Notes: generated from the letters alone by a model not told the origin. Numbered from the stretch's first letter, positions 1 to 18,836 are shown. The stretch is DNA of 32,582 bases from Methanomicrobiales archaeon (GCA_037137755.1 JBAXJR010000027.1:1-32582); one strand, 5' to 3'. Numbers and translations: made by a program.

Positions 1-502
1 ATACAAACGAAGAGCCCGGGGCCCTCCAGGTATGGAACGAATAATCCGGGCTGCATTGAATTGTCGTGTTCCCGGGCCTCTGGTAACAAAGGTGGTAGAG
101 GTAACCGGTATCAGGTGTTAAACCTGATATGACGATGTTTGCCGGCACCCCCTTCCCTGCCGTGGCGACTGGGGTCCTGAGAACTGTGGTTTCGCTGGCG
201 TTATGGTATTCAGCGAATAGTTCCAGGTTTTCTGCCGGGACTACATTTAGATTGACAGAATGATCCGTGGGGCGTCCAAGCTGGATCGTAACGGGTACAT
301 GCGTTGTATAACCGGTACTGGCAGAAACCGGGGATACCGGGTTGCGGATTGCCCGGTCCTGGACAACACCAGCACGGGATGAATTCCCCGGGCCGTGTGC
401 CACGGGTTTTTCCCCCGGACTGACACATGCCGCGGTAATAACGAGTACAATCACTATAATCCAGATTGCGATTGCCACGGTGTTCTTTTGAATCATTTCC
501 AT
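1..502 (-). CDS. Lipoprotein metallophosphoesterase paralog, 5' part only (runs off the window; absent from the ORF track)
   Basis: Manual translation from ATG 502 (GAGGT RBS-like sequence at 504-508) is open to position 1: MEMIQKNTVAIAIWIIVIVLVITAAC...QLGRPTDHSVNLNVVP...ISGLTPDTGYLYHLCYQ...PDYSFHTWRAPGSSFV. It has a lipobox-like TAAC and aligns with the FN3-like N-domain of 507..2069 (LLTRPTDNSVTVSLVP...VQGLVPDEQYYYRTCYQ...PEHSFHTDRSPGSTFT). Confidence 0.85.
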   Translation of the reverse strand, partial: MEMIQKNTVAIAIWIIVIVLVITAACVSPGEKPVAHGPGNSSRAGVVQDRAIRNPVSPVSASTGYTTHVPVTIQLGRPTDHSVNLNVVPAENLELFAEYHNASETTVLRTPVATAGKGVPANIVISGLTPDTGYLYHLCYQRPGNTTIQCSPDYSFHTWRAPGSSFV

Positions 503-506
503 TACC

Positions 507-2069
507 TCATGAATTGTCCCCGGAAAGCGTGTATGAATACGCCACCATGCCGTTCTTTCCGGACAACTTTTCCTTCCCCGGGAGATAGGATTTCACATAA
601 TCGACCGTTGTATTCTGTGGAGAGACGGTCACCCGGAGATAACCGGAATTCGGCTGTTTTACACCGGAAATGTACGCATCTTCATTGAAAGTGCTGTAAG
701 TCGGATCTGCCGGGCAGGGCACTTCCTGGTAGGTGACACCGTCCAGTTCCTGGCGGGCAAACAGGTGGTCATGCCCCTGGAAGAAGATCGTAACGCCGTT
801 CTCTGCCATCACCTGCTGTACAGGGAGTTCCCAGCCGGGTCGTTGTGTGTTGAATTCCCATGTACCCTTCTGGTTGTAGCCGCCCCATTCATACAGCCCG
901 GCATTTTCGATACCACCCCGTCCAGTACCCTGGACATGGTGGGCAAAGACGAATTTGTACGTTGCATTGCTCTCACTGAGTGTTTTTTTGAACCACTGGT
1001 ACTGGGTTTCACCAAGGGTAATCCCCCACGGGTCCCGTATTTTAGCGCTACCCTTCCCTGCGACATTATCCACAGCGACCGGAGAATGCCAGTACGGATC
1101 AATCACAACGAATAATGCATCACCCCAGGTCCAGGCGTAGTAATCCCCGGGAAGCCCGACATATTGTACCGCCCCGGTGTCACCGCTGTAAAATTCACCG
1201 GGTAGGGGCTGTGGGAAAAACTTCATCCGGGACATACCTGCGTATACTGCCGCATTGTCGGGTGTGCCGGTCAGCAGGTACCGGGCGGCCTCTTCATGGT
1301 TGCCGTCCACGAGGAAGACAGGGGATGAGTCCCCGATTATGTCAAGATAATTCCTCTGGCTGAGATAAACCGCGTCCACCGCCCCCTGGCTGAGCTGTCC
1401 TTTTTCAATGAGTGGGTCGATGCTGAAATCATCACCAAGCGAGATATAGAAATCAGGCCTTTCCTGTCCTGCATTACGCAGGGTCTGTTCATACAAGGCA
1501 GAATTAAACATCGTGTTGGTGCGTTCCGGGTGCGAGTCCGCCTGCACACCAAAGGTAAAGGTGCTGCCCGGCGACCGGTCTGTGTGGAACGAATGCTCCG
1601 GGCCACTATTGAGACCGGCTGTGGCGGTCTCCTGGTAGCAAGTCCGGTAGTAATACTGCTCGTCAGGTACCAGGCCCTGGACGGTAACATTCAGGGGTGC
1701 CCCGGCCTTTGCACGTAACTCAGGAGTCTGGCACAGATATGAACCCGGGGAGGTCCCGTATTCAAAGGAAATAAAAAGGTCTTTTTTCGGGACCAGGCTG
1801 ACAGTGACAGAGTTGTCAGTGGGCCGGGTCAGAAGTTCAGTTGCAATAAAATTCGAAGCATAGTCCGGGCTTTCTATTGGCTCAGCGGTCACCAGGGTGG
1901 TGCAGGAAAGGTTAACAGAAACCCCGGCCAGCTGTCCGCCGGTAACGGGTGTTATGATGGGTGTGGCCACCGGCAGGACCCGGTCTTCATTATGGGTACA
2001 ACCAGCGAGAAAAACCCCACCCGCTACCAGGATACAACAGAAAAAGATGAATTTTTTTTTACCCGTCAT
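507..2069 (-). CDS. Lipoprotein calcineurin-like metallophosphoesterase with an FN3/purple-acid-phosphatase-type N-terminal domain
   Basis: Signal peptide with lipobox FLAGC; metallophosphoesterase motifs ADSH, GDD, GNHE, AHH and GHDH in the canonical order. Confidence 0.85.
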   Translation of the reverse strand: MTGKKKFIFFCCILVAGGVFLAGCTHNEDRVLPVATPIITPVTGGQLAGVSVNLSCTTLVTAEPIESPDYASNFIATELLTRPTDNSVTVSLVPKKDLFISFEYGTSPGSYLCQTPELRAKAGAPLNVTVQGLVPDEQYYYRTCYQETATAGLNSGPEHSFHTDRSPGSTFTFGVQADSHPERTNTMFNSALYEQTLRNAGQERPDFYISLGDDFSIDPLIEKGQLSQGAVDAVYLSQRNYLDIIGDSSPVFLVDGNHEEAARYLLTGTPDNAAVYAGMSRMKFFPQPLPGEFYSGDTGAVQYVGLPGDYYAWTWGDALFVVIDPYWHSPVAVDNVAGKGSAKIRDPWGITLGETQYQWFKKTLSESNATYKFVFAHHVQGTGRGGIENAGLYEWGGYNQKGTWEFNTQRPGWELPVQQVMAENGVTIFFQGHDHLFARQELDGVTYQEVPCPADPTYSTFNEDAYISGVKQPNSGYLRVTVSPQNTTVDYVKSYLPGKEKLSGKNGMVAYSYTLSGDNS

Positions 2070-2192
2070 TCTTCTGGTCCTTTGTTCTGGTTAGCCCGGT
2101 GAATGGCCCGTTCGTTTTGAAATTTCATTTCTGATCACATTCTTATTCAGAGAGCGGTTCGGTATACCGGTCCATCCGGAAACAATTGGTTT

Positions 2193-4163
2193 TCAGAGGT
2201 GTGAAAACCAGTTTTTAACCATGTTAAAGATGTTGTTATCAGCGGCCTGGGCCTGTCCACGGGCCTGGGTACCTGAAGTCTGACCCGCCTGCCCTGTTTT
2301 CTGGGGCTGCTGGTTATTTGTCCCGGTGCCTTCTATTGCCTCGACAACACCCGGATTACTCTTTTTAAACGTGTCCAGCCACGTTTTCAACGCTTCCCGG
2401 TCTCCGCTTTTCAGTAATGTCTGTACGCTGCTTATATCATATCCCTTCTGTCCAAGCTGGGCCATGACCTCTTCAACGGGTATACGGTTCTGCTGTCCCT
2501 GGGCGTTCCCCTGTCCGTTCTGGGTAACGTTCCCTGCCCTTGGACTGCTTCCCTGTCCCTGGTTCGTTCCGGTTGCCTGCCCCTGTCCTGGTTTCAGGGG
2601 TCCCTGTCCGTTCCGGGTGACGTTTCCAGCCCCGGGACCATTGCCCGGTCCCTGGTTTGTACCAGTCCCCGGTCCCTGGGTTACCGTTGTCTGCTGCAGT
2701 CCCTGCAGCCATGTGGCCATCTGTGCGCTGTCGTATTGCCCTACACCGAAGAGGAAATCAGACGGTACGTTTTGTGGCATGCTAATTGGCTGTGAGTACA
2801 GGTATGCCCCGTCACAGGTGAAATTGGCAAGGTTCCGCAGTGCAATCATCTTCTTTTTCTGTTCGCTTGTGGTCGTCTGTCCCACATCTGCGAAGTGTGT
2901 TGCGTAGTAGTACGATATCTCACCATCAAGTTCACCGTACCGTGCCGATAATGAACGGACAAGGCTCTCGTCAATGGTATCGCCGGTTAACGCAGTACGC
3001 AGTTCGGTCGCAATTGCCGTCCGTTTTGCAACGATCTCGTTGAGATCAGCACGCTGGAGGTCCACAAGGCTTGTGATTTTCCCGCGCTGGCTGTCGGTTA
3101 ATCCATTTAAGAAGTCTTCCCCGGAATCACCCGTCATGGTAGTACTGATGGAATAGTCAGGGTTACCCATTGCCGGGCGGTCTTTCATGTAGAATGAACC
3201 GAAGTAGGTCGCCTGCCGTTCAGGGCAGAAGTACACATCGGAAGTGACATCGCCTGCATACCATGCAAACATCTCGCTGGCATAAGTCCTCATTGCAACT
3301 GAATTGTCCTGGCCGCTGTTTTTCAGTACTGCCGAAGCATCCACTTCAGGCATCGAGAGCATCCCTCCGGACGCCATCTTATCGAGGTATGCCCGCTGGG
3401 TCTGGTTAAGGGACCGGATCACGCTTGTATAGGCCTTTGCCCGATCCAGGCTGATGCTTGCATCAACATCATATAATTTTGCCGAGTACGCCATCACGGC
3501 TGCCTTATCAAGGCCGCTGCTCCCGGTGGGGATCGTTCCTTCAAGCTGGGCACGGAATGCCTTCGTCAGCGGAAACCGCATATACCCGTACTGGCTTGAA
3601 AGGGGGGCTTCTGTTTTTGAAAGTGCAATAAACTGTGCAAGCTGGTCGTCATTCAGGACAGACAATACATTGTCTGATATCCGGGTAACAAAGTCAGTAT
3701 TATGTCCCATCTGTGTGGCATCATTATCACGGAGGTACTGGAAACCCGCATAATCAGCTACTTTCCCGGGAGGCAGGAACGTGTCGCTGCATGCCTCTCC
3801 TGTTAGGAAAGCCAGTGCGTCAAACGCAATCGTTGCCTGCTGGCCCTGGTCGGAAAGGGTCTGTTCCATGGTATACGCCTGGTTACCGGCTGTCCCCTGT
3901 ACAGGCCCTTGACCTTGTCCTTTTCCCTGGTTTGTACCGCCGTTTCCGGTTCCAACCTGGGTCTGAACAGGATTGTTTACATTGTTATTTGTTCCCTGCT
4001 GTTGCTGCCCCTGTCCGGTTCCCGGTTGCTTACCGGGTCCTGGGGGTTGCTGACCTGGTGCGCCGGCGTTACCTGCCGCACTGACTGCTGCAACCATCAG
4101 TGCTATAATACAGAACACGGCGACAACAAGGCCTATCTTCTTTGAAATTTTCATCGTTGACAT
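2193..4163 (-). CDS. Secreted protein: 395-aa internally duplicated Spy/CpxP/ZraP-like (LTxxQ) core flanked by Gln/Gly/Asn-rich linkers, with a small C-terminal helical domain
   Basis: N-terminal signal peptide (KISKKIGLVVAVFCIIALMVAAVSA); LTxxQ-like motifs LNDDQ, LNQTQ, LTDSQ, TTSEQ bound helical segments; the core is shared with 4420..6912. The family assignment is from motif recognition only. Confidence 0.7.
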   Translation of the reverse strand: MSTMKISKKIGLVVAVFCIIALMVAAVSAAGNAGAPGQQPPGPGKQPGTGQGQQQQGTNNNVNNPVQTQVGTGNGGTNQGKGQGQGPVQGTAGNQAYTMEQTLSDQGQQATIAFDALAFLTGEACSDTFLPPGKVADYAGFQYLRDNDATQMGHNTDFVTRISDNVLSVLNDDQLAQFIALSKTEAPLSSQYGYMRFPLTKAFRAQLEGTIPTGSSGLDKAAVMAYSAKLYDVDASISLDRAKAYTSVIRSLNQTQRAYLDKMASGGMLSMPEVDASAVLKNSGQDNSVAMRTYASEMFAWYAGDVTSDVYFCPERQATYFGSFYMKDRPAMGNPDYSISTTMTGDSGEDFLNGLTDSQRGKITSLVDLQRADLNEIVAKRTAIATELRTALTGDTIDESLVRSLSARYGELDGEISYYYATHFADVGQTTTSEQKKKMIALRNLANFTCDGAYLYSQPISMPQNVPSDFLFGVGQYDSAQMATWLQGLQQTTVTQGPGTGTNQGPGNGPGAGNVTRNGQGPLKPGQGQATGTNQGQGSSPRAGNVTQNGQGNAQGQQNRIPVEEVMAQLGQKGYDISSVQTLLKSGDREALKTWLDTFKKSNPGVVEAIEGTGTNNQQPQKTGQAGQTSGTQARGQAQAADNNIFNMVKNWFSHL

Positions 4164-4220
4164 TCTCCTTTTATGGTTTATCCCATATTGGGTTATTATG
4201 CAGGTTAATCAGGAAAAGAG

Positions 4221-4271
4221 ATAAGTAAATGCCAGAATTAGTCCCGGATTACACCCAAATCATACCCAAAT
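4221..4271 (-). promoter_or_regulatory. Promoter with four phased 11-bp units next to a TATA-like CTTAT
   Basis: Plus-strand units aatgccagaat|tagtcccggat|tacacccaaat|catacccaaat at 4228-4271; ataag at 4221-4225 (CTTAT on minus); about 60 bp upstream of the 4163 start. Confidence 0.65.
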
Positions 4272-4419
4272 CCGGATCCCCGGGATGCTCACACGTGGAC
4301 CCTCAAACCGACTGAGACTACTCACCTCCATCCACCCGGAGACCGGGGATACTGATCCATAACCCGTTAACCGGTTACAGGTGGAAAAAAGGGATTTCAT
4401 TTATTAATTGATGGATACT

Positions 4420-6912
4420 TTACCTTGCGATGCTGAACCCGGTAGCTTTGGACCCGGTAGTCCCGTCACTGTTCGTGACGATTACGTTCCAGCTCCCTGT
4501 TGCCGCTGTCGCCGGGATTGCAAATCTGCACGTGATCGCCATTGGACTTACGACCACAACGCTGTTTGCAACAATATCCGGCTGGCCACTTTTCTGTAAC
4601 TTTACCATAGCTCCTGACCTGAAGTTAGTCCCTGCGAGGTTTGTTATGCTTATGGTCGCCCCTGTCTTCCCCAAAGCGGGTGTGATACCCGTAACCGTAG
4701 GGGGAGGAGGTGCTGTAATGCTGAATGCGGCAGCCTTCTTACCCGATGTCCCGTCACTGTTCGTGACGACTACATCCCAGCTCCCTGTTGCCGCTGTTAC
4801 CGGGATAGTGACGGTACATGTAATCTTAGTGAGGCTGGTGATCGCCACGTTGCTTGCGATAATATCTGGCTGGCCAGCCTTCAACAGCTTTACCGTACCC
4901 CCGGGCATGAAGTTGGCCCCTGCAAGGTTGGTAATACCTACAGTAGTCCCTGCAGTCCCTGAAGCGGGTGTGATACCCGTAACCGTAGGGGAGGGAGGTG
5001 CTGTAATGCTGAATGCGGCAGCCTTCTTACCCGATGTCCCGTCACTATTCGTGACCACTACGTCCCAGTTTCCGATGGAAGCGTTGGGTGGGACTGCAAG
5101 ATCGCACGTGATCTTCGTCGGGCCTGAAGCAACGACATTACCCGCAATAATGGCATTCTGGCCTGATTTCTGGAGTTTCACTGTTGCTCCCGGCCTGAAG
5201 TTAGTTCCCACAAGGGTTGTACTACTTCCGACAGCAATATTTCCTGATGCGGGGGTGATGTTCGTCACCGTGGGTGAGGCCGGTGGCATTAATTTAGGTG
5301 TTAGTTTTTTATCAATTACCGTTGGGACTGCAGGCGCCGTCCGTGCTGTATTGTTTACCCACGTGCTGTTTACATTTCCACTCGTATCGACGGTTCGCGT
5401 ACTTATGGTGTAGGAGACATTTGGTACCAGACCTGTAGCATTGTAGAAGCCAATCCCCCTGGTCACATTCATCATGAACCGGCCATTGAAATAAACGATG
5501 ATTCGGTCAAGGTCCGCATCTCTTGGGTCAGCCCATGTCCAGGTTATGAAATCAGGCTGATATGACGTATTCCTAAGATTCGCAACGCTCTGGGGGGGCG
5601 TTGTATCGGTTGGTGAAGGATCAGTTCCCTGCAGGCCATCTAACCATGCGGTCATTTCCGCGCTGTTGTAGGTCCCCAACCCGAAGAGGAAATTCGTGGG
5701 TATATTCTGAGGCATGTTGATAGTCTGTGAGTACAGGTACGCCCCTTCGCAGGTGAAGCCATCAAGGTTTCGCAGTGCTACCATCTTCTGCTTCTGATCG
5801 CTCGTGATGTTATTTCCCACATCTGCAAAGTGCGTGGCGTAATAGTACGAGATCTCCCCGTCCAGTTCCCCGTACCGTGCTGAAAGTGATCGCACGAGTG
5901 ACTCATCAATGGTATCGCCGGCTAACGCAGTGCGCAGTTCGGTTGCAATAGCCGTCCGCTTTGCAACAATCTCGTTGAGATCAGCACGCTGGAGGTCAAC
6001 AAGGCTTGTGATCTTTTCCCGTTGCGTGGTGGTAAGCAGGTCCAGGAAGGCCTCCCCGGAATCGCCGGTCAGGCTGGTACTGATGGAATAATTCGGGTTC
6101 CCCATTGCAGGACGGTCTTTCATATAGAACGAGCCGAAGTAGGTTGCCTGACGTTCAGGGCAGAAATACACGTCTGATTCAACATCCCCTGCATACCATG
6201 CGAACATTTCGCTGGCGTAGGTCCTCATTGCAACCGAGTTGTTCTGGCCGCTGTTTTTCAGCACGGCTGATGCATCAACAACCGGCCATGAGAGCATTCC
6301 GCCGGATCCCATGTTATCGAGGTATGCCCGCTGGGTCTGGTTTAATGACCGGATCACGCTGGCATAGGTCTTTGCCCGTTCCAGGCTGATGCTTGCATCA
6401 ACATCATACAATTTTGCCGAGTATGCCATCACGGCTGCTTTGTTAAGGCCGCTGCTCCCTGAGGGGATATTTCCTTCAAGCTGGGCACGGAACGCTTTCA
6501 TCAGGGGAAACCGCATATACCCATACTTCGTTGTCAGCGGGGCCTCTGTTTTTGAAAGTGCAACAAATTGTGCAAGCTGGGCGTCATTCAGGATAATTAG
6601 TACATTATCCGAGGCCCGTGTGACAAAATCAGTATTATGTCCCATCTGTGTGGCATCGTTATCACGGAGGTACTGGAAACCCGCATAATCAGCGACTTTC
6701 CCGGGTGGCAGGAATGTATCGCTGCAGGCCTGGCCTGTAAGGAACGCGAGCCCGTCAAATGCGAGGGTCGTTTCCTGTGCCTGGTCGGACAGGGTTTGTT
6801 CCATCGTATATGCCTGGCTGCCCGGGGTCACAGCCCCACTCGCCGCTGTTACCACCAGTGCCATAACGCAGAATATCGTAACTACAAGTCCGGTTTTAAT
6901 TGGTAGTTTCAT
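4420..6912 (-). CDS. Secreted or surface protein: the same 395-aa core plus an FN3 domain and three IPT/TIG domains
   Basis: Signal peptide; core about 85% identical and ungapped versus 2193..4163 (manual count about 58 differences in 395 aa); FN3-like segment (DTTPPQSVANL...ITWTWADP...YNATGLVPNVSYTISTRTVD); three roughly 96-aa repeats PTVTxITP...G.NF..GATVKL...W(D/N)V(V/I)VTNSDG. Confidence 0.8.
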   Translation of the reverse strand: MKLPIKTGLVVTIFCVMALVVTAASGAVTPGSQAYTMEQTLSDQAQETTLAFDGLAFLTGQACSDTFLPPGKVADYAGFQYLRDNDATQMGHNTDFVTRASDNVLIILNDAQLAQFVALSKTEAPLTTKYGYMRFPLMKAFRAQLEGNIPSGSSGLNKAAVMAYSAKLYDVDASISLERAKTYASVIRSLNQTQRAYLDNMGSGGMLSWPVVDASAVLKNSGQNNSVAMRTYASEMFAWYAGDVESDVYFCPERQATYFGSFYMKDRPAMGNPNYSISTSLTGDSGEAFLDLLTTTQREKITSLVDLQRADLNEIVAKRTAIATELRTALAGDTIDESLVRSLSARYGELDGEISYYYATHFADVGNNITSDQKQKMVALRNLDGFTCEGAYLYSQTINMPQNIPTNFLFGLGTYNSAEMTAWLDGLQGTDPSPTDTTPPQSVANLRNTSYQPDFITWTWADPRDADLDRIIVYFNGRFMMNVTRGIGFYNATGLVPNVSYTISTRTVDTSGNVNSTWVNNTARTAPAVPTVIDKKLTPKLMPPASPTVTNITPASGNIAVGSSTTLVGTNFRPGATVKLQKSGQNAIIAGNVVASGPTKITCDLAVPPNASIGNWDVVVTNSDGTSGKKAAAFSITAPPSPTVTGITPASGTAGTTVGITNLAGANFMPGGTVKLLKAGQPDIIASNVAITSLTKITCTVTIPVTAATGSWDVVVTNSDGTSGKKAAAFSITAPPPPTVTGITPALGKTGATISITNLAGTNFRSGAMVKLQKSGQPDIVANSVVVVSPMAITCRFAIPATAATGSWNVIVTNSDGTTGSKATGFSIAR
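4674..5068. repeat. 107-bp near-identical direct repeat inside the IPT-coding region (4674-4780 and 4962-5068)
   Basis: 5 mismatches in 107 bp; offset 288 bp, equal to 96 codons. Confidence 0.85.
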
Positions 6913-7037
6913 AGTTTTTTCACCTTCAGGACGATTTTATGCTGAACGATTGTTGAAATCCGATTACACCATGTAATATTGTAATGCATTATCGTGATGT
7001 AACAATATCTCTCATTATGGGTATTCATAAATAAGGT

Positions 7038-7158
7038 AATTCCAGAATTCGTCCCGGATCACACCCAAATTACACCCAAATTACACCCAAATTACACCCA
7101 AATTACGCCCAAATTACACCCAAATTACACCCAAATTACGCCCAAATTACGCCCAAAT
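7038..7158. repeat. Tandem array of 11-bp units, consensus TACACCCAAAT (9 near-perfect copies at 7060-7158 plus 2 degenerate copies at 7038-7059), upstream of the 6912 gene
   Basis: Read directly: cacacccaaat, 3x tacacccaaat, tacgcccaaat, 2x tacacccaaat, 2x tacgcccaaat, preceded by aattccagaat and tcgtcccggat. ataag at 7031-7035 has the same offset to the array as in the 4221 copy. Confidence 0.95.
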
Positions 7159-7340
7159 CTTTACCGGTCCGGACCGATCCGGATGGGAATTAATAAGGCC
7201 TCATCCGTCACGGATACACAGCACAATAAAAAAGCCCGATATCTCCCGTACAACCGTCATGAACGCTTACGATCAGAGGGATAGAAGGAAATAGGGTATA
7301 TGCCCGGGGCAGAGATATCGGGTTGTTATGTAGATTACCT

Positions 7341-7400
7341 GGAAAAGAAATACGGAAATCCCAGAATTTGCCCCGGATTACACCCAAATCATACCAAAAT
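7341..7400 (-). promoter_or_regulatory. Third copy of the 11-bp-unit promoter cassette
   Basis: ggaaaagaaatacgga followed by aatcccagaat|ttgccccggat|tacacccaaat|cataccaaaat; closely matches 4212-4271. Confidence 0.65.
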
Positions 7401-7405
7401 TTGAA

Positions 7406-7873
7406 TTATTCAAGGCTGATCCAGATGAGGATTACCAGGGCAGCCGTTGCACAGAGGTCCGGCACAATCTGGAACAACCCGATGAATTCCGGACGACCCC
7501 CGAGGAGACTCACGAGCAGCGGGTTGGATGTGATTGCATATATTCCAAGGGCAAAGATCACTGCCATGAGACCGAGAGTAAAGGAGCTCCGCATCTTCCG
7601 GTAAATTCCTGCATAAATAATGAACAGGGGGATGATCAGGCCGATATTGATGAATGATATCACCGTTTTGAGGTTCTCCATCGGTGTCGGGGGCTGCTGG
7701 GCGGGTCGTGCCTGCTGCATGGGAATTGGATTTTGATTTGGTATGGGGTTTTGAATAGGGTTTTGCACGGGGCCGGGTTGTGGTGTTTTTAAAAGAACCG
7801 GGATTATGAAACTGGTAAGTACTACTGCAATCACCGAAATAAGAATTAATACAACAAGATTTTTTTTCTCCAT
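7406..7873 (-). CDS. Small multi-pass membrane protein coupled to the wHTH gene
   Basis: About 4 hydrophobic segments; Pro/Gln-rich loop with QNPI repeats; starts 1 bp after the stop codon of 7875..8177. Confidence 0.75.
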   Translation of the reverse strand: MEKKNLVVLILISVIAVVLTSFIIPVLLKTPQPGPVQNPIQNPIPNQNPIPMQQARPAQQPPTPMENLKTVISFINIGLIIPLFIIYAGIYRKMRSSFTLGLMAVIFALGIYAITSNPLLVSLLGGRPEFIGLFQIVPDLCATAALVILIWISLE

Positions 7874-7874
7874 T

Positions 7875-8177
7875 CTATTTTTCCTCCCTTATTTCATCTG
7901 GTACATCGACCTGTTTCCAGATCTCCATGAAGTCTTCATATCTCGTGTTCATCTGGTCAGTAAGAAAATACATGGTCCCGTATCCCTCCCCCATTGATCG
8001 GACAATCTGGTGCTTATTTAAAACATTGAGGTGGTGGCGGACCGTCTTGTAATCAAGGCTGAATGCTGATGTTAACTGGTTGGCATTATACGGCCTTTTA
8101 TGGAGTGCCTGGATAATCCGGGCCCTATTAATGCCTCCTTTTGATCCTGCTATTAACCACCACAATAACTGTTTCAC
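7875..8177 (-). CDS. Archaeal ArsR-like winged helix-turn-helix transcriptional regulator
   Basis: LLWWLIAGSKGGINRARII...PYNANQL...LDYKTVRHHLNVL...YGTMYFL is typical of small archaeal wHTH proteins; GTG start; no Cys, so no classical ArsR metal site. Confidence 0.85.
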   Translation of the reverse strand: MKQLLWWLIAGSKGGINRARIIQALHKRPYNANQLTSAFSLDYKTVRHHLNVLNKHQIVRSMGEGYGTMYFLTDQMNTRYEDFMEIWKQVDVPDEIREEK

Positions 8178-8295
8178 TTCGGCGCTCCAAACCCGGACTG
8201 ATATATTCTATTGTGATATTGATGCTAATAAAATGGTTATCCGGATTGTCGCGGCTTTATTAAACAGTATTCATTCCAATCGATTTTAGCAGTGT

Positions 8296-8337
8296 TGGAT
8301 GGCTGGAACAGGAAAGGGGCGGTGTTTATGGGGAAGT
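8296..8337 (+). repeat. 42-bp imperfect direct repeat, left copy (right copy at 23316-23357)
   Basis: tggatggctggaacaggaaaggggcggtgtttatggggaagt versus tggatagcacgaacaggaaagggggcgtgtttgcggggaagt; 35/42 identical with no gaps. Confidence 0.75.
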
Positions 8338-8347
8338 GAGGGGGGGT

Positions 8348-8641
8348 TTAGACGATGTTTATGACCGAATTACTTTCGTATCTGTCAACTGGTTTGATTA
8401 GCCAGAGTAATATTGATTGGCCGGATTCGATGGAGATGGATATTTCATCGGCGGGAAGGGGAACAGTTATGTTGGCTGCGGGTTCGAGATCGATGATCGG
8501 TATTGGTAATACTACAGCACTCGGGTATGTTCATACGACGTCGTAGCACGTTGGGGCTTTCGGTAATTTTACGATAAACTGGGAGGCGAGGTGGAGATCG
8601 TTTACTTCATCGATTTGATTATTTTTCTGGTCTCATTTCAT
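8348..8641 (-). pseudogene. Possible decayed gene remnant
   Basis: 98-codon frame from ATG 8641 to TAA 8350-8348 interrupted by two TGA codons; no family recognised. Confidence 0.2.
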
Positions 8642-8733
8642 AATAGTAATATCCGAATCGAAAGATCCGGACTTTTTTTCAGTCAGGCACATTTAATAAT
8701 CCATTTATTGCTGCAGATGCAAACGTCCAAGGC

Positions 8734-10257
8734 ATGAAACCGGCACCGGCAAATACTACCGGAAACGGCTATACGCTCCTGATCGTTTCTATCGCGCTCG
8801 CCAATTTTATGGGGGCATTCGATTCAACCATTGTCACGATTGCACTCCCGACGATAGCGAAGGTCTTCAGCCTCCCTGTCTCGATGACGAGCTGGGTGAT
8901 CACGGTATACGTTCTGGTCATGGCTGCATTAGTCCTGGTCTTTGGGAAACTTTCGGACAGGATTGGTTACAAGAACGTGTTCCTGTACGGGTTCGTCATT
9001 TTCACGGTTGCATCATTCGCCTGCGGTTTCCTCCCTGAATTTTCAAGCTCGTTTCCCGTCTTCATCGCCTCGCGTGCTGTCCAGGCTATCGGTGCCGTGA
9101 TGTTCGTGTCGGTCGGGCCGGCCATGATCTCCGCCTATGTACCCCAGGAGCTGAAAGGAAAAGCAATGGGCACGACGTTTGCATTTGCTGCCCTGGGAAT
9201 GACCATCGCACCGGTTGTTGGCGGGGTGCTCACGCAGTACCTCTCCTGGAACTGGATCTTTTACATCAACATCCCCATCGGGATCGCTGCCGTACTCCTC
9301 GGGTTAAAAGTCATCCCCGCCGGGGTGAGCAGGAAACTGGAGCACGGCTTTGACCTTGCCGGTGCCGTACTCCTCGCTCTCGGACTTACTACCTTGCTCT
9401 ATGCCCTGTCGGAAGGGCAATCGGCAGGCTGGACCGATCCCGTCATCCTGGGATGCCTTGTCGTGGCTTTTGTGTCGCTTCTCGCCTTCATCCGGTGTGA
9501 ATTTGCAGCATCGGACCCGCTTCTCGACCTGCACCTCCTGCAGCAGAAAAATTTCTTCCTGACAAGCCTGGCAATTGTCCTCCTGGTGGTTACCTATGTC
9601 GGGGTCATCTACCTCTTCCCCATCTATCTCCAGCTCGTGCAGGGGTACTCCCCTTCGGTTGCAGGGCTGATATTCACCTCTCTGTCGGTAGCGGTCATGA
9701 TTGGCGGGATCCTGGGTGGGACGCTCTTCAACCGGGCCGGGGGACGACGGGTCAACATTGCTTCCGGTGTGCTGGTCCTTGCAGGGTATATCCTCCTTAC
9801 CGCGATCCGACCGGATTCTCCCGTCTGGTTCATGGTCCTCTCCATGGTCCTGATTGGCCTCGGGTTTGGTATGCTCCTGACCTCAGCGTCAACCATGGCG
9901 ATGATGGCAGTGCCGAAGAAGAATCAGGGTATGGTCTCCGGGTTCATCTGCCTTGCACGGTTCGTACCGATCACTATCGGGGTAGCCCTCTTCACCATCG
10001 TGTTTGTCGGGGGTATGAACGCGGCCAGTCCCGGCAGCGGGGTTGCAAGCGAAGCGCTGGTGAATATCAACACGAATATACTCATTGCCGGGTTCTGGCA
10101 GGCATTTTTGTTCGGGTGCATTATCAGCATCGTCCTCCTCGCGATTGTCATCGTGGCTCGCCAGGAGATCCATCCGGATTATCTTCACAAGGGTGATGAG
10201 GGGAGTCTCCCTCCGGTCATAGGTGAAAACGGGGAACGTAACAATGGCCCCGGATGA
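8734..10257 (+). CDS. MFS transporter, DHA2 (14-TMS, EmrB/QacA-like) efflux family
   Basis: D-STIVTIALP motif, motif A GKLSDRIGYK, WNWIFYINIPIG, many transmembrane segments, 507 aa. Confidence 0.9.
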   Translation: MKPAPANTTGNGYTLLIVSIALANFMGAFDSTIVTIALPTIAKVFSLPVSMTSWVITVYVLVMAALVLVFGKLSDRIGYKNVFLYGFVIFTVASFACGFLPEFSSSFPVFIASRAVQAIGAVMFVSVGPAMISAYVPQELKGKAMGTTFAFAALGMTIAPVVGGVLTQYLSWNWIFYINIPIGIAAVLLGLKVIPAGVSRKLEHGFDLAGAVLLALGLTTLLYALSEGQSAGWTDPVILGCLVVAFVSLLAFIRCEFAASDPLLDLHLLQQKNFFLTSLAIVLLVVTYVGVIYLFPIYLQLVQGYSPSVAGLIFTSLSVAVMIGGILGGTLFNRAGGRRVNIASGVLVLAGYILLTAIRPDSPVWFMVLSMVLIGLGFGMLLTSASTMAMMAVPKKNQGMVSGFICLARFVPITIGVALFTIVFVGGMNAASPGSGVASEALVNINTNILIAGFWQAFLFGCIISIVLLAIVIVARQEIHPDYLHKGDEGSLPPVIGENGERNNGPG

Positions 10258-11456: not shown

Positions 11457-11756
11457 ATGATACAACAGGATATTTATCAGCAGATCAAAACAAAAAAAAG
11501 TGAAATTCTCCGTCTTGCCGAAACATACGGTGCTTCCCATATCCGGATCTTTGGCTCGGTTGCCCATCACACTGCCGATGAAAAAAGCGATATCGATTTT
11601 CTTGTCGAGATGGAACCCGGAAAAACTCTCTTTGATCTTGGTGGGTTTGCATACGATCTTGAAAAACTCCTGGGCCGGCGGGTGGATGTCTGTACCATTC
11701 CGCTGCTGCGGGAACCGATCCGCAGCCGGGTTGTTTCGGAAGCGGTACCACTATGA
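11457..11756 (+). CDS. Minimal nucleotidyltransferase (MntA-type antitoxin)
   Basis: GS-x10-DxD motif (FGSVAHHTADEKSDIDFL), LGRRVDV; 4-bp overlap with the downstream HEPN gene. Confidence 0.9.
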   Translation: MIQQDIYQQIKTKKSEILRLAETYGASHIRIFGSVAHHTADEKSDIDFLVEMEPGKTLFDLGGFAYDLEKLLGRRVDVCTIPLLREPIRSRVVSEAVPL

Positions 11757-12094
11757 GAAATGACCATTTGCGTTTCATGGATATGGCAGAATCCATCAAA
11801 AAGATAGAGAAATATACCTCATCCGGAAAACAGACTTTTGAGCGGGAGGAACTGGTCCAGGTATGGGTTGTCCATTATCTTCAAATCCTTGGCGAAGCTG
11901 CACGCGGTGTTTCTGGGGAATCACAACAGAAATTCAATCAGGTCCCCTGGGGGAAGATAATTGGTTTTCGTAACATTCTTGTCCAGCACTATTTTGATAT
12001 AAATACTGATGAGATTTGGGCAGTCGTCCAGGTAAATATCCCTCCATTAAAGGTGGCGCTGAACAAGGTTCTCGAAGAATATCCAACGGATTGA
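11753..12094 (+). CDS. HEPN/DUF86 (HepT-type) RNase toxin with a variant catalytic motif
   Basis: LQILGEAA, VPWGKIIGFRNILVQHYFDIN; paired with the MNT gene. Confidence 0.88.
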   Translation: MRNDHLRFMDMAESIKKIEKYTSSGKQTFEREELVQVWVVHYLQILGEAARGVSGESQQKFNQVPWGKIIGFRNILVQHYFDINTDEIWAVVQVNIPPLKVALNKVLEEYPTD

Positions 12095-14329: not shown

Positions 14330-16753
14330 ATGCAACCTGAATCGGTCCTGTCAGCAGTCTGGACACATATCAAGCCGGCATTAATTATTTTTCTCCTTCT
14401 TACGGTGTTGACCGGCCTGCTCTATCCCCTGGTAATTACGGGGATTGCCCAGGTTGCTTTTTCGGATGAATCAAACGGGAACCTGATCATTCACAACGGG
14501 AGCGTTGCCGGCTCCGTTTTAATCGGCCAGCCTTTTTCTTCCCCGGGTTACTTCTGGGGACGGCCATCGGCTACGATCCCCTTCCCCGACAACCCGGAGC
14601 TTTCTACAGGATCAAACCTCGGTCCCACAAACCCGGAATTAATCAACGCAGTTTCAGCCAGGGTCAGCGCATTGCAGGCGGCAGATCCGGGTAACAATCT
14701 CCCGGTACCGGTCGATCTGGTAACTACCTCGGCAAGTGGTCTCGATCCCGATATCAGTGTGGCTGCAGCAGAGTACCAGGTCAGCCGGGTTGCAAAGGCC
14801 AGGAACCTGAGTAAAACCGATGTTGCGTGGCTCGTCGGCAAGAATACAAAACAACCTCAGTTCGGGGTCTTTGGTGAAACCCGGGTTAATGTGTTATCTC
14901 TAAACCTCGCACTCGATGACCTTGCATCTGATCGCATTTCCGTCCCTGCCGGGAATTCAGGCCTTGTCGAACAGGGAAATGGTTCTCCGGTTTCCGGCAT
15001 CGGCGGTAAAGACCTGATCCAGCTGGTCCTGTTTGCGGTTATCCTGATGCTGTTCCTGGTCCCGTTTGGCCGGTTTATGGCACGGGTGTATACCGGGGAG
15101 CATACCATTCTGACCCCGGTTACAGCACCCATCGAGACCTGGGTCTACCGGGTCCTTGGGACGAGCCCCGATGAAGAGATGGACTGGAAATCGTTTGCAA
15201 TTGCACTGCTGGTCTTTAATATTCTGGGAATTATCATAGTTTTCCTCGTACAGCAGGTCCAGTCCATCCTCCCCCTTAACCCTGCCGGACTCGGACCGGT
15301 ACCATGGGACCTCTCCCTCAATACTGCAGTAAGTTTTGCCTCCAATACAAACTGGCAGGCGTACGCAGGGGAGGCAACCCTGAGCTACCTTACCCAGATG
15401 ATGGCACTGACCGTGCAGAATTTTGTCTCGGCAGCAACCGGCATGGCGGTCCTGGTCGCGCTCATTTATGGACTTTCGCGAAAATCCACAGAGAAAATCG
15501 GTAATTTCTGGGTGCTCCTGACACGGGGCATCATTATTCTCCTCCCGGTCTGCATCGTCATTTCCGTAATACTCGTATCGCAGGGTTCCGTCCAGACATT
15601 CAACGGGCCGGTTACTGTCCCGCTTCTCGACCCGGTAACAGACAGTAACGGGGTACTGGTAACGACACAGACCATCCCGATGGGACCTGCAGCCTCACAG
15701 GTAGCGATCAAGTTGCTCGGGACCAACGGCGGAGGGTTCTTTAACACAAACTCCGCACATCCATTCGAAAATCCCACACCATTCTCCAATTTCGTCGAGA
15801 TCCTCAGTATCCTGTTAATCCCGGTCTGCCTGTGTTTCACGTACGGGAAACTGGTCGGTTCGGCAAGAAAAGGCATTGCCATCCTCATTGCAATGACCCT
15901 CATTTTCGTTCCCCTGCTCGGTCTTGCCATCTGGTCGGAAGCAGGGGGAAATCCCGCATTCGCCCCTCTCGGAGTCGATCAGGCTGCGGGAGCACTCCAG
16001 CCTGGAGGCAACATGGAAGGAAAAGAGGTGCGGTTCGGCGTCCCGTTCGCTTCGATGTTCTCGATCGTCACGACCGCGACATCATGCGGTGCCGTAAATT
16101 CCATGCACGATTCCTTCATGCCGCTGGGTGGCTTTGCCCAGATGCTGATGATGCAGTTCGGCGAGGTGGTGTACGGTGGGGTAGGTTCGGGACTATACGG
16201 GATGCTCGTCTTTGTCATTATTGCCATGTTTATTGCAGGGCTCATGGTGGGAAGGACCCCTGAATACCTCGGGAAGAAGATCGAACCCCGGGAAATGAAG
16301 ATCGCAACGATCATCATCATTATCCCGATTGTCCTGGTCCTCGCCGGAACCGCCATTGCTGTTCTGTCCGATGTGGGAAAATCTGCCATACTGAACCCCG
16401 GGGCTCACGGGTTTTCGGAAATTCTCTATGCGTTCACCTCGGTTGCCCAGAACAACGGCAGTGCGTTTGCCGGGCTCTCCGTAAACAGCCTGTTCTACAA
16501 TCTCATTACCGCGATCATGATGGGCATCGGCCGCTACCTGCCTGCCGTCCTCACCCTCGCCCTCGCCGGGGCTTTTGCCATGAAAAAGATCGTCCCGGTC
16601 GGCGAAGGGACGTTGTACGACCACCGGCCGCTTTTTATCATCTGGCTGGTATTCGTCATCGTCATTGTCGGGGCACTCAGTTTCCTCCCGGTGCTCGCAC
16701 TCGGGCCGCTGGCAGAATATCTCCACATGATCTCCGGAGGTTTCCATGTCTGA
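14330..16753 (+). CDS. kdpA: Fused KdpC-KdpA (K+-transporting ATPase subunits C and A)
   Basis: Residues 1 to about 200 are KdpC ([50 protein letters not shown]), then a short linker, then full KdpA with filter motifs NTNWQ, TNGGG, SCGAV, NNGSA, all in one frame. Confidence 0.92.
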
Positions 16754-18836
16754 CCAGGAAACAAAAAAGGGCCAGGCGGAACTCTATAAACGGGCTGTTA
16801 TTGAAGCGTTTCTGAAACTTGACCCGCGGCTGATGGCAAAGAACATCGTGATGTTCGTCGTTGAAATCGGGTCGATTATTACTACCCTCCTCTGGCTCCA
16901 GGCCCTGACGGGTCATGGTGAAGCCCCGGCGTCATTTATCGGTGCAATCAGTATCTGGCTCTGGTTCACGGTTATCTTTGCCAATTTTGCGGAAGCACTC
17001 GCTGAAGGCAGGGGGAAGGCACAGGCCGAATCGCTCAGGAAAATGCGGCGCGATACCGAGGCCAAGAAACTGAAGGGCGACTACAAGGTCAATAAGAACT
17101 GTGAGCCCGGGGATTCGGATTATGAAATTATCCCATCATCGACGCTCCGCAGGTCAGATCACTACTATGTCCGTTCGGGGGATACCATCCCGCTCGATGG
17201 CGAGATTGTTGAAGGAGTCGCGTCGGTGAACGAGAGTGCCATAACCGGGGAAAGTGCCCCGGTAATCCGTGAGTCAGGTGGGGACCGGAGTGCTGTTACC
17301 GGTGGTACGGTGATCCTTTCCGACTGGCTTATCATCCGGGTGACGGCGAATCCCGGGGAAGGGTTCCTTGATCACATGATTTCCCTCATCGAAGGGGCAA
17401 AGCGACAGAAAACCCCGAACGAAATTGCCCTTAATATTCTCCTTATAGGCCTTACAGCGATTTTTATTGTCGTTTGTGCGACACTCTGGGCTTTTTCTCA
17501 TTATTCAGTGGAGACTGCCGGGTACGGGCAGGTCATCACGGTTACCACGCTCATAGCACTCCTCGTATGCCTTGCCCCGACCACTATCGGAGGCCTGCTT
17601 AGCGCCATCGGCATCGCGGGAATGGACCGGTTAATACGTCGTAATGTTATTACAACCTCGGGCAGGGCAATCGAGGCCGCAGGCGATGTCGATGTGCTCC
17701 TCCTCGACAAGACAGGGACGATCACGTTAGGCAACCGGCAGGCGGTAGAGCTGATCCCGGTGGACGGGACCGATATTACCGAGCTTGCCGAAACAGCCCA
17801 GCTCGCCTCCCTTGCCGATGAAACGCCCGAGGGGAGGAGTATTGTCGTGCTTGTCAAGGAACAGTACGGCCTCCGCGGCCGCAGTGTCGGTGCCCATGAA
17901 GAGACCTCCGGAATGCAGTTTATCCCGTTTTCAAGCCATACCCGGATGAGCGGAGTCGACAGCGGGTCCACATCCATAAGGAAAGGAGCAGCCGATGCAA
18001 TTGCCCATTACATAGAAGATAACGGCAACAATGTCTCCCCGGACCTGAAGGCAAAGGTGGAAACAATATCCGGTTCAGGAGGGACACCGCTTGTCGTAGC
18101 AATGAATGGGAAGGCACTCGGCGTAATCCACCTAAAAGACGTGGTAAAAGGTGGAATCAAGGAACGGTTTTCCCAACTGAGACGAATGGGGATTAAAACG
18201 GTGATGATCACAGGGGATAACAGGCTCACTGCAGCAACCATCGCGGCAGAGGCAGGGGTTGACGACTTCCTTGCAGAGGCGACCCCCGAAAGCAAGCTCC
18301 GGATGATCAGGGATTACCAGGCAGGAGGACGTATGGTCGCAATGACCGGTGACGGAACGAATGATGCACCGGCCCTTGCCCAGGCCGATGTCGCCGTCGC
18401 GATGAACACCGGGACCCAGCCGGCCCGCGAAGCGGCGAACATGATCGACCTGGACAGCAACCCGACCAAGCTCATCGAGATCGTGGAGATCGGGAAACAA
18501 TTGCTCATGACGAGGGGAGCGCTCACCACCTTTTCGATTGCAAATGACCTGGCCAAGTATTTTGCCATTATTCCGGCGGCATTTATCACCACCTATCCGG
18601 CGTTGGCAGCCTTAAACATCCTCGGCCTCCATAATGCCATCCTCTCCGCGGTGATCTTTAATGCACTGATCATTGTCATGCTCATCCCGCTCGCCCTTCG
18701 CGGGGTGCAGTACAAACCGATGACCGCTGAGGAAGCGCTGAGAAACAATATCCTCCTGTACGGTGTCGGGGGTATTGTTGCTCCGTTTATCGGGATCAAA
18801 ATAATTGATATCCTCCTCGTCCTCATGGGGGTGTGA
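16746..18836 (+). CDS. kdpB: K+-transporting P-type ATPase subunit B
   Basis: TGES, DKTGT phosphorylation site, [27 protein letters not shown]. Confidence 0.97.

Follow-up and report, generated by a model that had tools for sequence, protein, structure and literature searches.

A conserved wHTH-DUF8036 gene cluster of Methanomicrobiales with a promoter-linked repeat cassette, and its possible role in controlling secreted LTXXQ proteins

Results

Six co-oriented genes and a repeat cassette at three places

We analysed a stretch of 32,582 nucleotides (nt) from a Methanomicrobiales archaeon (GCA_037137755.1 JBAXJR010000027.1:1-32582; the whole stretch is called the window below). A first-pass annotation made from the sequence alone had described six co-oriented genes in its first 8,177 nt, with one repeat cassette at three places in their intergenic DNA, and had interpreted them as a regulon for sensing the state of the cell envelope. 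Both observations were borne out: six open reading frames (ORFs), all on the minus strand, lie within 1-8177, and the same cassette is present at three intergenic places. The genes encode an ArsR-type winged helix-turn-helix (wHTH) protein, a DUF8036 membrane protein with four transmembrane (TM) segments, two secreted paralogs and two lipobox metallophosphoesterases:

7875..8177, minus: ArsR-type wHTH protein, 100 amino acids (aa), GTG start (Pfam HTH_5)
7406..7873, minus: DUF8036 (PF26119) membrane protein, 155 aa, with TM1, a Pro/Gln-rich linker and a conserved 3-TM bundle
4420..6912, minus: secreted paralog 1, 830 aa, with a signal peptide, a 400-aa tandem LTXXQ core and Ig-like repeats (TIG / CoaZ)
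2193..4163, minus: secreted paralog 2, 656 aa, with a signal peptide, Gly/Gln/Pro-rich stretches, the core (aa 91-492) and a C-terminal domain
507..2069, minus: lipobox metallophosphoesterase 1, 520 aa (Metallophos)
2..502, minus: lipobox metallophosphoesterase 2, N-terminal 167 aa, cut by the window edge

Three cassettes accompany these genes:

7341..7400, minus: cassette 1, an orphan with no protein gene behind it; four 11-nt units (7357-7400) and the TATA-like box TCCGTATTTCT (nhmmer E 2.2e-15)
7022..7158, minus: cassette 2; eleven phased 11-nt units (7038-7158; nine of them ATTTGGGYGTR) and the TATA-like box ACCTTATTTAT (Tandem Repeats Finder)
4212..4271, minus: cassette 3; four 11-nt units (4228-4271) and the TATA-like box TACTTATCTCT, situated about 55 nt before the start of the 656-aa gene (nhmmer E 8.6e-18)

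The word ATTTGGGYGTR, with at most one mismatch, has 13 matches in the window against 2.44 expected, a count that none of 100 shuffles reached, and 12 of the 13 lie on the gene strand at the three intergenic places, which have a 60-nt block in common. The promoter-proximal 20 nt of the cassette occur three times, with 0.01 occurrences expected. Cassette 2, in which Tandem Repeats Finder detected 8.9 copies of an 11-nt unit with 96% matches (7061-7158), stands 116 nt from the ATG of the 830-aa gene; its 11 units compare with a mode of four, and no related locus has more than five, which suggests that slippage has recently expanded a regulatory site here. The phosphoesterase genes of the window have no cassette in front of them.

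Conservation of the gene order and of the cassette

For comparison, one genome per species was scanned with the DUF8036 alignment, which gave 19 loci (designated by L numbers), all from metagenome-assembled genomes of Methanomicrobiales and mostly from Methanoregulaceae; their gene content was read by tblastn with the six window proteins. A wHTH gene directly precedes the DUF8036 gene in 16 of the 19 loci, the other three being short contigs without that end, and the gap between the two genes is about -1 to 8 nt where it was read (in the window the DUF8036 gene starts 1 nt past the wHTH stop). The next gene encodes a secreted protein with the tandem core in 15 of the 16 paired loci, and L009 has an Lcl_C (DUF1566) gene instead. 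Among the 13 loci that extend far enough downstream, seven have phosphoesterases (L001, L002, L004, L007, L008, L013 and L018), which are accessory to the module. The order wHTH, DUF8036, core gene and, often, two phosphoesterases thus recurs in Methanomicrobiales loci, and the genes form a conserved module.

A search with the promoter-proximal 20-mer, allowing up to five mismatches, returned 28 hits, of which 26 were kept; two 5-mismatch hits (on the minus strand of L013, and at 2272 in L014) were dropped because no repeats lie beside them. The 26 cassettes of the window and the loci, all on the gene strand, stand before 22 of 22 core-type genes and before two Lcl_C genes, two being orphans (7341-7400 in the window, and one in L005), and every wHTH-DUF8036 pair is followed by a cassette. 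With a cassette profile, nhmmer found all 26 at E <= 1.8e-7 in 260,016 + 32,582 bases and, save for the window's own array, nothing else below 0.01; cassette-like matches at E of about 0.08 near TPR and Bro-N genes were treated as chance. Where no core gene follows a DUF8036 copy, the cassette is missing too, and it therefore goes with the promoter of the genes behind it (referred to here as cargo) and not with DUF8036. The co-occurrence of wHTH, membrane gene and ATTTGGG-N4 arrays, which the first-pass annotation had put forward as a check, was seen across these loci, all of them fetched through DUF8036. Judged by these searches, the cassette is a conserved element that is tied to promoters and confined to this cluster.

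Aligned at their anchor, the cassettes read ATTTGGGTATG / ATTTGGGTGTA / ATCCGGGGCAA / ATTCTGGCATT / TCCTTATCTCT. Each 11-nt unit follows the pattern AT-YY-GGG-N4, with AT and GGG at fixed places and an invariant GGG core, and the units keep an 11-nt register, that is about one helical turn, with four units in 16 of the 26 cassettes. The repeats abut an off-consensus TATA-like box, 2 nt before which the proximal unit ends, and the ATG follows the cassette anchor/box by 55-67 nt in most cases (about 57 nt). The cargo promoters have CTTATCTC after a T-rich position of the TFB recognition element (BRE), and the unit cores lie immediately upstream of the BRE position; the mcr promoter of the window, used as a reference, reads CTTATATT after an A-rich stretch.

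A different promoter seems to serve the wHTH-DUF8036 operon:

8226..8233, minus: TATA-like box TTTTATTA, 49 nt before the GTG, read from the sequence and probably the promoter of the operon

A block CCGGATAACCATT(A/T)ATTA...ATATCA around this box is common to nine of 17 wHTH upstream regions despite differing upstream genes, and within it the box reads TTTTATTA or TTAATTA. As a side observation, the wHTH leader (8178-8233 in the window; also in L001-L005, L007, L011 and L015) contains a single word resembling a unit (GGATTTGGAG; GGGTTTGGAG in the window); this word overlaps the ribosome-binding site and could be a lone autoregulatory site or merely the Shine-Dalgarno sequence.

The wHTH protein

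The wHTH protein matches HTH_5 (PF01022) above the Pfam cutoff (32.2 bits versus 22, E 9.5e-8), and in NCBIfam it stays under the cutoffs of HTH_metalloreg (ArsR/SmtB; 35.1 bits versus 55) and of SdpR (NF033789; 31.6 bits versus 100). ArsR/SmtB metal sites consist of Cys in helix 3 or at the N-terminus, or of Asp/His/His/Glu in the last helix. The wHTH protein contains no Cys, and its His residues are at 26, 48, 49 and 56 only, none of them in the C-terminal helix; it therefore appears to be without the usual metal sites, which makes a partner protein plausible as the source of its input. Its recognition helix, DYKT(V/I)RHHL, is invariant in all 17 orthologues. A sequence search of the PDB gave no close solved relative (the best was an ArsR protein at 0.0094), and neither did a search with the wHTH profile. 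The subfamily comprises 1804 clusters, versus 270 for DUF8036 (both at E <= 0.001), and includes proteins of about 60% identity labelled Thorarchaeota and Methanobacteriaceae.

The DUF8036 membrane protein

The DUF8036 protein of the window has four hydrophobic segments, with the Pro/Gln-rich linker after the first. PF26119 is precomputed on all 120 listed homologues, the window's own protein included, and in the Atlas clusters nearest to one homologue (P0052), 98-100% of the members are DUF8036. In the Atlas the family occurs in archaea only, for instance Bathyarchaeota and Thermoplasmatota, and it is small: a search of 1.84 billion proteins gave 245 representatives at E <= 0.001. Its most conserved part is a loop predicted to be cytoplasmic, which is invariant as YR(K/R)xRSSFTLGL and kept as YRKxRSxFT in distant members too. 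These distant members retain the three-helix bundle and the loop and differ between TM1 and TM2, and because of this variability we suggest that the TM1-TM2 stretch faces outward. In one of them (P0373) an Ig-like insert of about 130 aa lies between TM1 and TM2, and in two others (P0392 and P0426) a helical insert with LTDEQ or LTREQ; an LTxxQ-like word, L[TSN]x[ED]Q, was present in three of 149 ectodomains only, had no Pfam support and is a weak lead. The window protein matched no SdpI family in Pfam at E <= 0.1, its sole match being DUF2070 at 0.098, and a profile search of the PDB with DUF8036 returned nothing.

Additional DUF8036 genes that lack a wHTH gene were found in eight loci, directly after the second phosphoesterase:

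L001 14441-14911: wHTH-less DUF8036 gene
L002 7030-7500: wHTH-less DUF8036 gene
L007 15601-16059: wHTH-less DUF8036 gene
L008 14091-14564: wHTH-less DUF8036 gene
L012, L015, L016 and L018: wHTH-less DUF8036 genes in the same position

In the window such a copy would be expected just beyond position 1. The wHTH-less copies are not one clade, in a poorly resolved tree with 11 of 21 inner branches open. Partial or divergent extra copies precede core or PEBP genes in L004, L019 and L010, and in L017 (10001-10463) a DUF8036 gene is frame-shifted, either as a pseudogene or through an assembly error.

The secreted LTXXQ proteins

The two paralogs, both with signal-peptide-like N-termini, are 85% identical across a 402-aa core. 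Paralog 1 also reaches the NCBIfam cutoff for CoaZ_rpt (37 bits versus 30), and the true start of paralog 2 is likely 4154, which would give 653 aa as in the database copy. In Pfam the window proteins remain below the threshold of LTXXQ (PF07813; 19.9 and 15.5 bits, or 22 bits for the core alone, versus 24.3), and among 37 members of the core family 22 match LTXXQ at E <= 0.01 (best 1.2e-8) and nine match Metal_resist; PF07813 is precomputed on 31 of 120 listed core homologues, counted by eye. The two halves of the core are homologous to each other (hhalign probability 97.6%, E 3.1e-12, 145 columns), and each contains two LTxxQ-like motifs, LNDDQ and LNQTQ in the first half and LTDSQ and TTSEQ in the second. 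Aligned with the E. coli proteins, the second half has both motifs in register with Spy (80 columns, E 0.0011, at a low probability of 20.5%) and with CpxP (91 columns, E 9.4e-4, at a similarly low 22.4%). At the level of sequence profiles the core is thus a tandem duplication of a Spy/CpxP-like LTXXQ unit, and it might mimic the Spy dimer in one chain. The Spy/CpxP-like, LTxxQ-type character assigned to these proteins by the first-pass annotation accordingly stands for the family profile and falls short for the window proteins' own Pfam match.

Searched against the PDB, the core profile hit no sequence at E <= 10, and the core sequence of the 656-aa protein likewise found no close solved relative. 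The core family is large, with at least 3500 clusters at E <= 0.001, and according to the Atlas one homologue (P0159) adjoins LTXXQ proteins of 435-546 aa from Verrucomicrobiota. The tails vary, with PEBP in 25 of the 120 listed homologues (counted by eye) and TIG, PKD or PEGA in others, and stand-alone PEBP genes occur in the flanks of L010 and L018. Two loci contain unusual relatives: in L015 (8385-9894) the core gene is matched in several frames, pointing to a pseudogene or an assembly error, and in L004 (4436-5068) a cassette-driven gene has the N- and C-terminal parts of the 656-aa protein without the LTXXQ core and without a Pfam match.

The lipobox metallophosphoesterases

Phosphoesterase 1 matches Metallophos (PF00149) above its cutoff (34.7 bits versus 21.5) and the N-terminal domain of purple acid phosphatases below it. 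The lipobox residues G23-C24 are invariant in seven of seven aligned homologues, as are the metal-ligand motifs DxH, GD, GNH, H and GHDH (D178, H180, D213, N257, H258, H433 and H435). A plain sequence search of the PDB gave no close solved relative, and a profile search gave weak matches to purple acid phosphatases (6.8e-6). Purple acid phosphatases have DxG as their first motif and a GDxxY motif with a tyrosine ligand; the first motif here is DSH and the second is GDDFS in the window enzyme and GDTFM in the consensus. Full-length orthologues of phosphoesterase 2, 51-62% identical over the 167 aa available, follow phosphoesterase 1 in L002, L007, L016 and L018.

Other features and neighbouring genes

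Two further stretches of the cluster may form RNA structures:

7222..7335, minus: about 110 nt behind cassette 1, containing a long-range stem of 9 bp (7312-7327 / 7230-7245) and then a T-run (inverted repeat, fold)
2187..2210, minus: 9-bp hairpin spanning the stop codon of paralog 2, with ATTGTTT behind it (fold z-score -1.57; same stem in L002 and L004)

The orphan-cassette arrangement (7222-7400) is 83% identical in L005 (6869-7045), where the stem (fold z-score -1.73 in the window) persists with a single G-U change and shows no double compensatory change. This weak evidence suggests that the region may encode a cassette-driven small RNA or be the terminator of the wHTH-DUF8036 transcript; a peptide gene was rejected, as the small ORF is not conserved in L005. 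The hairpin at the stop of paralog 2 may act as an attenuator ahead of the phosphoesterase genes.

Otherwise the window consists of ordinary methanogen chromosome, with mcrBDCGA, formylmethanofuran dehydrogenase-like genes, kdp genes and a major facilitator superfamily transporter. Within 14330-20815, a single ORF contains KdpC (aa 15-196) and KdpA (aa 234-798) and is followed by kdpB, after which a KdpD-like protein has KdpD, Usp, DUF4118 and GAF domains and no kinase domain at E <= 1e-5. At 11753-12094 lies an ORF for a HepT-like ribonuclease, whose family name marks it as the toxin component of a HEPN/MNT-type pair. A Rfam scan of positions 1-9000 gave one sub-threshold chance match only, and a scan for sigma-70 promoters and terminators was uninformative for an archaeal host. 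We also rejected a defence role, PADLOC having returned only a generic Csa3 wHTH match (3.4e-9), with no CRISPR or defence genes nearby.

Scans with Pfam and NCBIfam found no histidine kinase or response regulator domain in the six module proteins. The flanks of 10 loci (101 ORFs) vary from locus to locus, with rubrerythrin, riboflavin genes, an MMPL transporter and a thermosome gene among the examples; no kinase, response regulator or other regulator gene is conserved in them, a lone receiver domain lying 7 kb off in L017 only, and no pst, phoU or other phosphate-uptake genes were found. The description of the module as kinase-free was therefore correct as far as gene content goes, no kinase gene being present within it. 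In two related loci only, grpE-dnaK-dnaJ-hsp20 lies directly upstream of the wHTH gene (L014, 5436-9557; L017, 5455-9555), a faint hint of a link to protein-folding stress.

Discussion

The genes, their conserved order and the conserved cassette with its position show that the module is real and conserved; it appears to be undescribed and recombines parts of known kinds. The first-pass annotation had known of no characterisation in methanogens, and our literature searches, whose coverage did not extend to subscription journals, turned up no paper describing it. The envelope-sensing interpretation as a whole is partly supported: the conserved module, the cluster-specific cassette, the LTXXQ segment at family level and the lack of a kinase hold, and the binding of the wHTH protein, the sign of the regulation, the role of DUF8036 and the signal are what we infer in the following.

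Tentatively, we favour the view that the cluster is a conserved, lineage-specific regulon of methanogens of the Methanoregulaceae type, in which the wHTH protein activates the cassette promoters and DUF8036 modulates the wHTH protein. An operon with a near-consensus TATA box would produce the wHTH protein together with the translationally coupled 4-TM DUF8036 protein. The cargo would always include a secreted tandem-LTXXQ protein; sometimes an Lcl_C protein would belong to it as well, and often a pair of lipid-anchored metallophosphoesterases expressed by read-through from the core gene. Several wHTH molecules would occupy the 11-bp repeats along the same face of the DNA, directly ahead of the BRE position, and would help TBP/TFB onto the weak cargo promoter (CTTATCTC) by EarA-type activation. 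With less assurance, DUF8036 may hold or modulate the wHTH protein at the membrane, as SdpI does with SdpR or an anti-sigma factor with its sigma factor, and if it does hold it there, the DUF8036 paralog that ends the cargo operon would provide feedback. The signal would most likely be a condition outside the membrane, be it the folding of proteins, metal or phosphate compounds.

Activation by several wHTH molecules is favoured, with repression as a possible alternative, because of the off-consensus cargo TATA box, the unit cores upstream of it and the parallels with EarA and PhoB. In an excerpt of PMC5512572, off-consensus TATA/BRE elements accompany archaeal activators, and EarA of Methanococcus maripaludis acts through four sites immediately upstream of the BRE. 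Several short sites just upstream of the BRE/TATA of an off-consensus promoter are thus common to our cassettes and EarA (and also Ptr2 and TFB-RF1; PMC5512572, same excerpt), a likeness of layout. EarA has four 6-bp sites, whereas the cassettes have about four phased 11-bp units; its targets are archaellum genes and not secreted proteins, and the excerpt describes no membrane partner for it (PMC5512572). PhoB, according to an excerpt of PMC4971064, binds the Pho box with its winged helices head to tail on 7-bp direct repeats, each followed by 4 bp, which gives the same 11-bp period, and phosphoesterases are among the neighbours here. PhoB differs in being a phosphorylated response regulator of another wHTH family with a different motif, and our cluster has no linked phosphate-uptake genes.

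A number of observations weigh against this view. Most proteins of the ArsR family act as repressors and bind to inverted repeats as dimers, so that four direct repeats would be atypical, and since neither the recognition helix nor the motif varies, there is no co-variation signal to connect them. All loci were fetched through DUF8036, and the co-occurrence of cassette and wHTH is therefore partly built in. The wHTH subfamily outnumbers the DUF8036 family, so that many wHTH relatives must work without DUF8036, and among the eight longest of 150 listed DUF8036 representatives none is fused to a helix-turn-helix. Outside the membrane, DUF8036 has in this lineage only the Pro/Gln-rich linker of about 40 aa. 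Its wHTH-less paralogs at the end of the phosphoesterase operon in eight loci fit a membrane role related to the cargo equally with feedback. The cassette precedes core and Lcl_C genes only; the cassette profile found none in the regions upstream of the wHTH genes, giving no sign of autoregulation through the same site. Phosphoesterases are absent from six of the 13 loci with enough downstream sequence (L003, L010, L011, L014, L015 and L017). The weak-promoter argument is based on one reference promoter, and the flanking genes of the 10 loci give no consistent hint of the signal.

The alternative that survives best, which we nevertheless consider unlikely, is that the wHTH protein regulates on its own and DUF8036 is a membrane component for the cargo, as an anchor, receptor or export helper of the LTXXQ proteins or lipoproteins. 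Such a role would account for the wHTH-less paralogs at the 3' end of the phosphoesterase operon and for the partial or divergent copies before core or PEBP genes, and it agrees with the variable ectodomains of distant members, such as the Ig-like insert of P0373, and with the missing helix-turn-helix fusions. It is at odds with the tight coupling of the wHTH and DUF8036 genes in 16 of 16 loci and with the placing of the strongest conservation in a short loop that, by predicted topology, faces the cytoplasm.

Somewhat less probable still is a repressor version of the same circuit, in which the wHTH protein would coat the repeats and shut the cargo promoters until, on a signal, DUF8036 sequestered it. 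The prevalence of repressors in the ArsR family and the sub-threshold SdpR match of the wHTH protein point this way, as does the proximal unit, which by ending 2 nt before the TATA-like box overlaps the BRE position. The nearest known logic is that of SdpR-SdpI in Bacillus subtilis, where, in a portion of PMC2910880, the ArsR-type regulator is encoded 3 bp before its sequestering membrane partner, similar to the few bases between our two genes, for which sequestration is proposed as well. SdpR represses its own operon (PMC2910880, same portion), whereas the wHTH operon has no cassette, and the direct repeats here stand before neighbouring genes for secreted proteins, with no toxin gene present. 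DUF8036 also has no detectable homology to SdpI (no Pfam match at E <= 0.1), the wHTH protein is far below the SdpR cutoff, the conserved unit cores are found ahead of the BRE position, where they cover neither the TATA box nor the transcription start, and the off-consensus cargo TATA box suits activation.

It is doubtful that the same wiring serves a nutrient response, scavenging phosphate compounds at the cell surface, and not envelope stress. The two lipobox metallophosphoesterases with their purple-acid-phosphatase-like N-domains would suit such a response, as would PEBP, both fused to the core (25 of the 120 listed homologues, by eye) and stand-alone in L010 and L018; the 7+4 bp layout of direct repeats resembles the Pho box (as described in the part of PMC4971064 cited above). 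The lack of phosphate genes in the flanks speaks against it, and the phosphoesterases are missing in six of 13 loci and have no cassette before them, whereas LTXXQ proteins are the constant part of the cargo; a poor fit, too, is the grpE-dnaK-dnaJ-hsp20 set immediately upstream in L014 and L017.

We regard it as quite improbable that the cassette is bound by a regulator encoded elsewhere, with the wHTH-DUF8036 pair controlling something else. Nothing links the wHTH protein directly to the repeats, direct repeats are unusual for ArsR proteins and the wHTH subfamily is wider than the module, but a cassette follows every wHTH-DUF8036 pair, including those of L009 and L013 with their different cargo, and the flanks hold no other conserved regulator gene. 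That the repeats are functionless, as chance microsatellites or duplication scars, can practically be dismissed: the 11-unit array of the window does resemble slippage and cassettes could have been copied with duplicated core genes, but unit phase, GGG cores and TATA-like box are kept where the proteins are only 57-70% identical and the adjacent leader DNA cannot be aligned, orientation and distance to the ATG are fixed, and none of the 100 shuffles reached the observed count.

Returning to activation by the wHTH protein under the influence of DUF8036, the secreted output resembles that of the Cpx, Bae and Zra systems of Proteobacteria, which also includes LTXXQ proteins; the second half of the core aligns, at low probability, with E. 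coli Spy and CpxP. These systems use a histidine kinase and a response regulator, whereas here an ArsR-type wHTH protein and a 4-TM DUF8036 protein are found together with an archaeal (TATA/BRE) promoter, and their cargo proteins of about 160 aa contrast with a 400-aa tandem duplication that has extra N-terminal subdomains and variable tails. In logic only, the arrangement is also similar to extracytoplasmic function (ECF) sigma factors and their membrane anti-sigma factors, such as sigmaE-RseA, in that both pair a small DNA-targeting protein with a small, co-translated membrane protein and have extracytoplasmic folding factors in their regulon; to our knowledge, archaea have no sigma factors. 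As a bolder and rather improbable extension, the module might be the archaeal equivalent of an ECF sigma/anti-sigma pair or of the Cpx pathway: DUF8036 would hold the ArsR-type activator, a disturbance outside would release it onto four phased 11-bp sites beside weak TATA boxes and so induce single-chain Spy/CpxP-like pseudo-dimers and surface phosphoesterases, and a second, inducible DUF8036 protein from the end of the cargo operon would provide negative feedback.

Very little is known about the ways in which archaea detect and mend damage beyond the cytoplasmic membrane, and a defined site is available for few archaeal transcription activators. The module is a compact case, with a 100-aa regulator, a 66-bp site of clear geometry and defined secreted targets, and even if the wHTH protein were unrelated to the repeats, the cassette would still mark the regulon of another regulator. 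All three parts are conserved in methanogens of the Methanoregula type, common inhabitants of peat and freshwater sediments, and the module would give a first functional handle on DUF8036 and on the large family of 400-aa tandem LTXXQ proteins.

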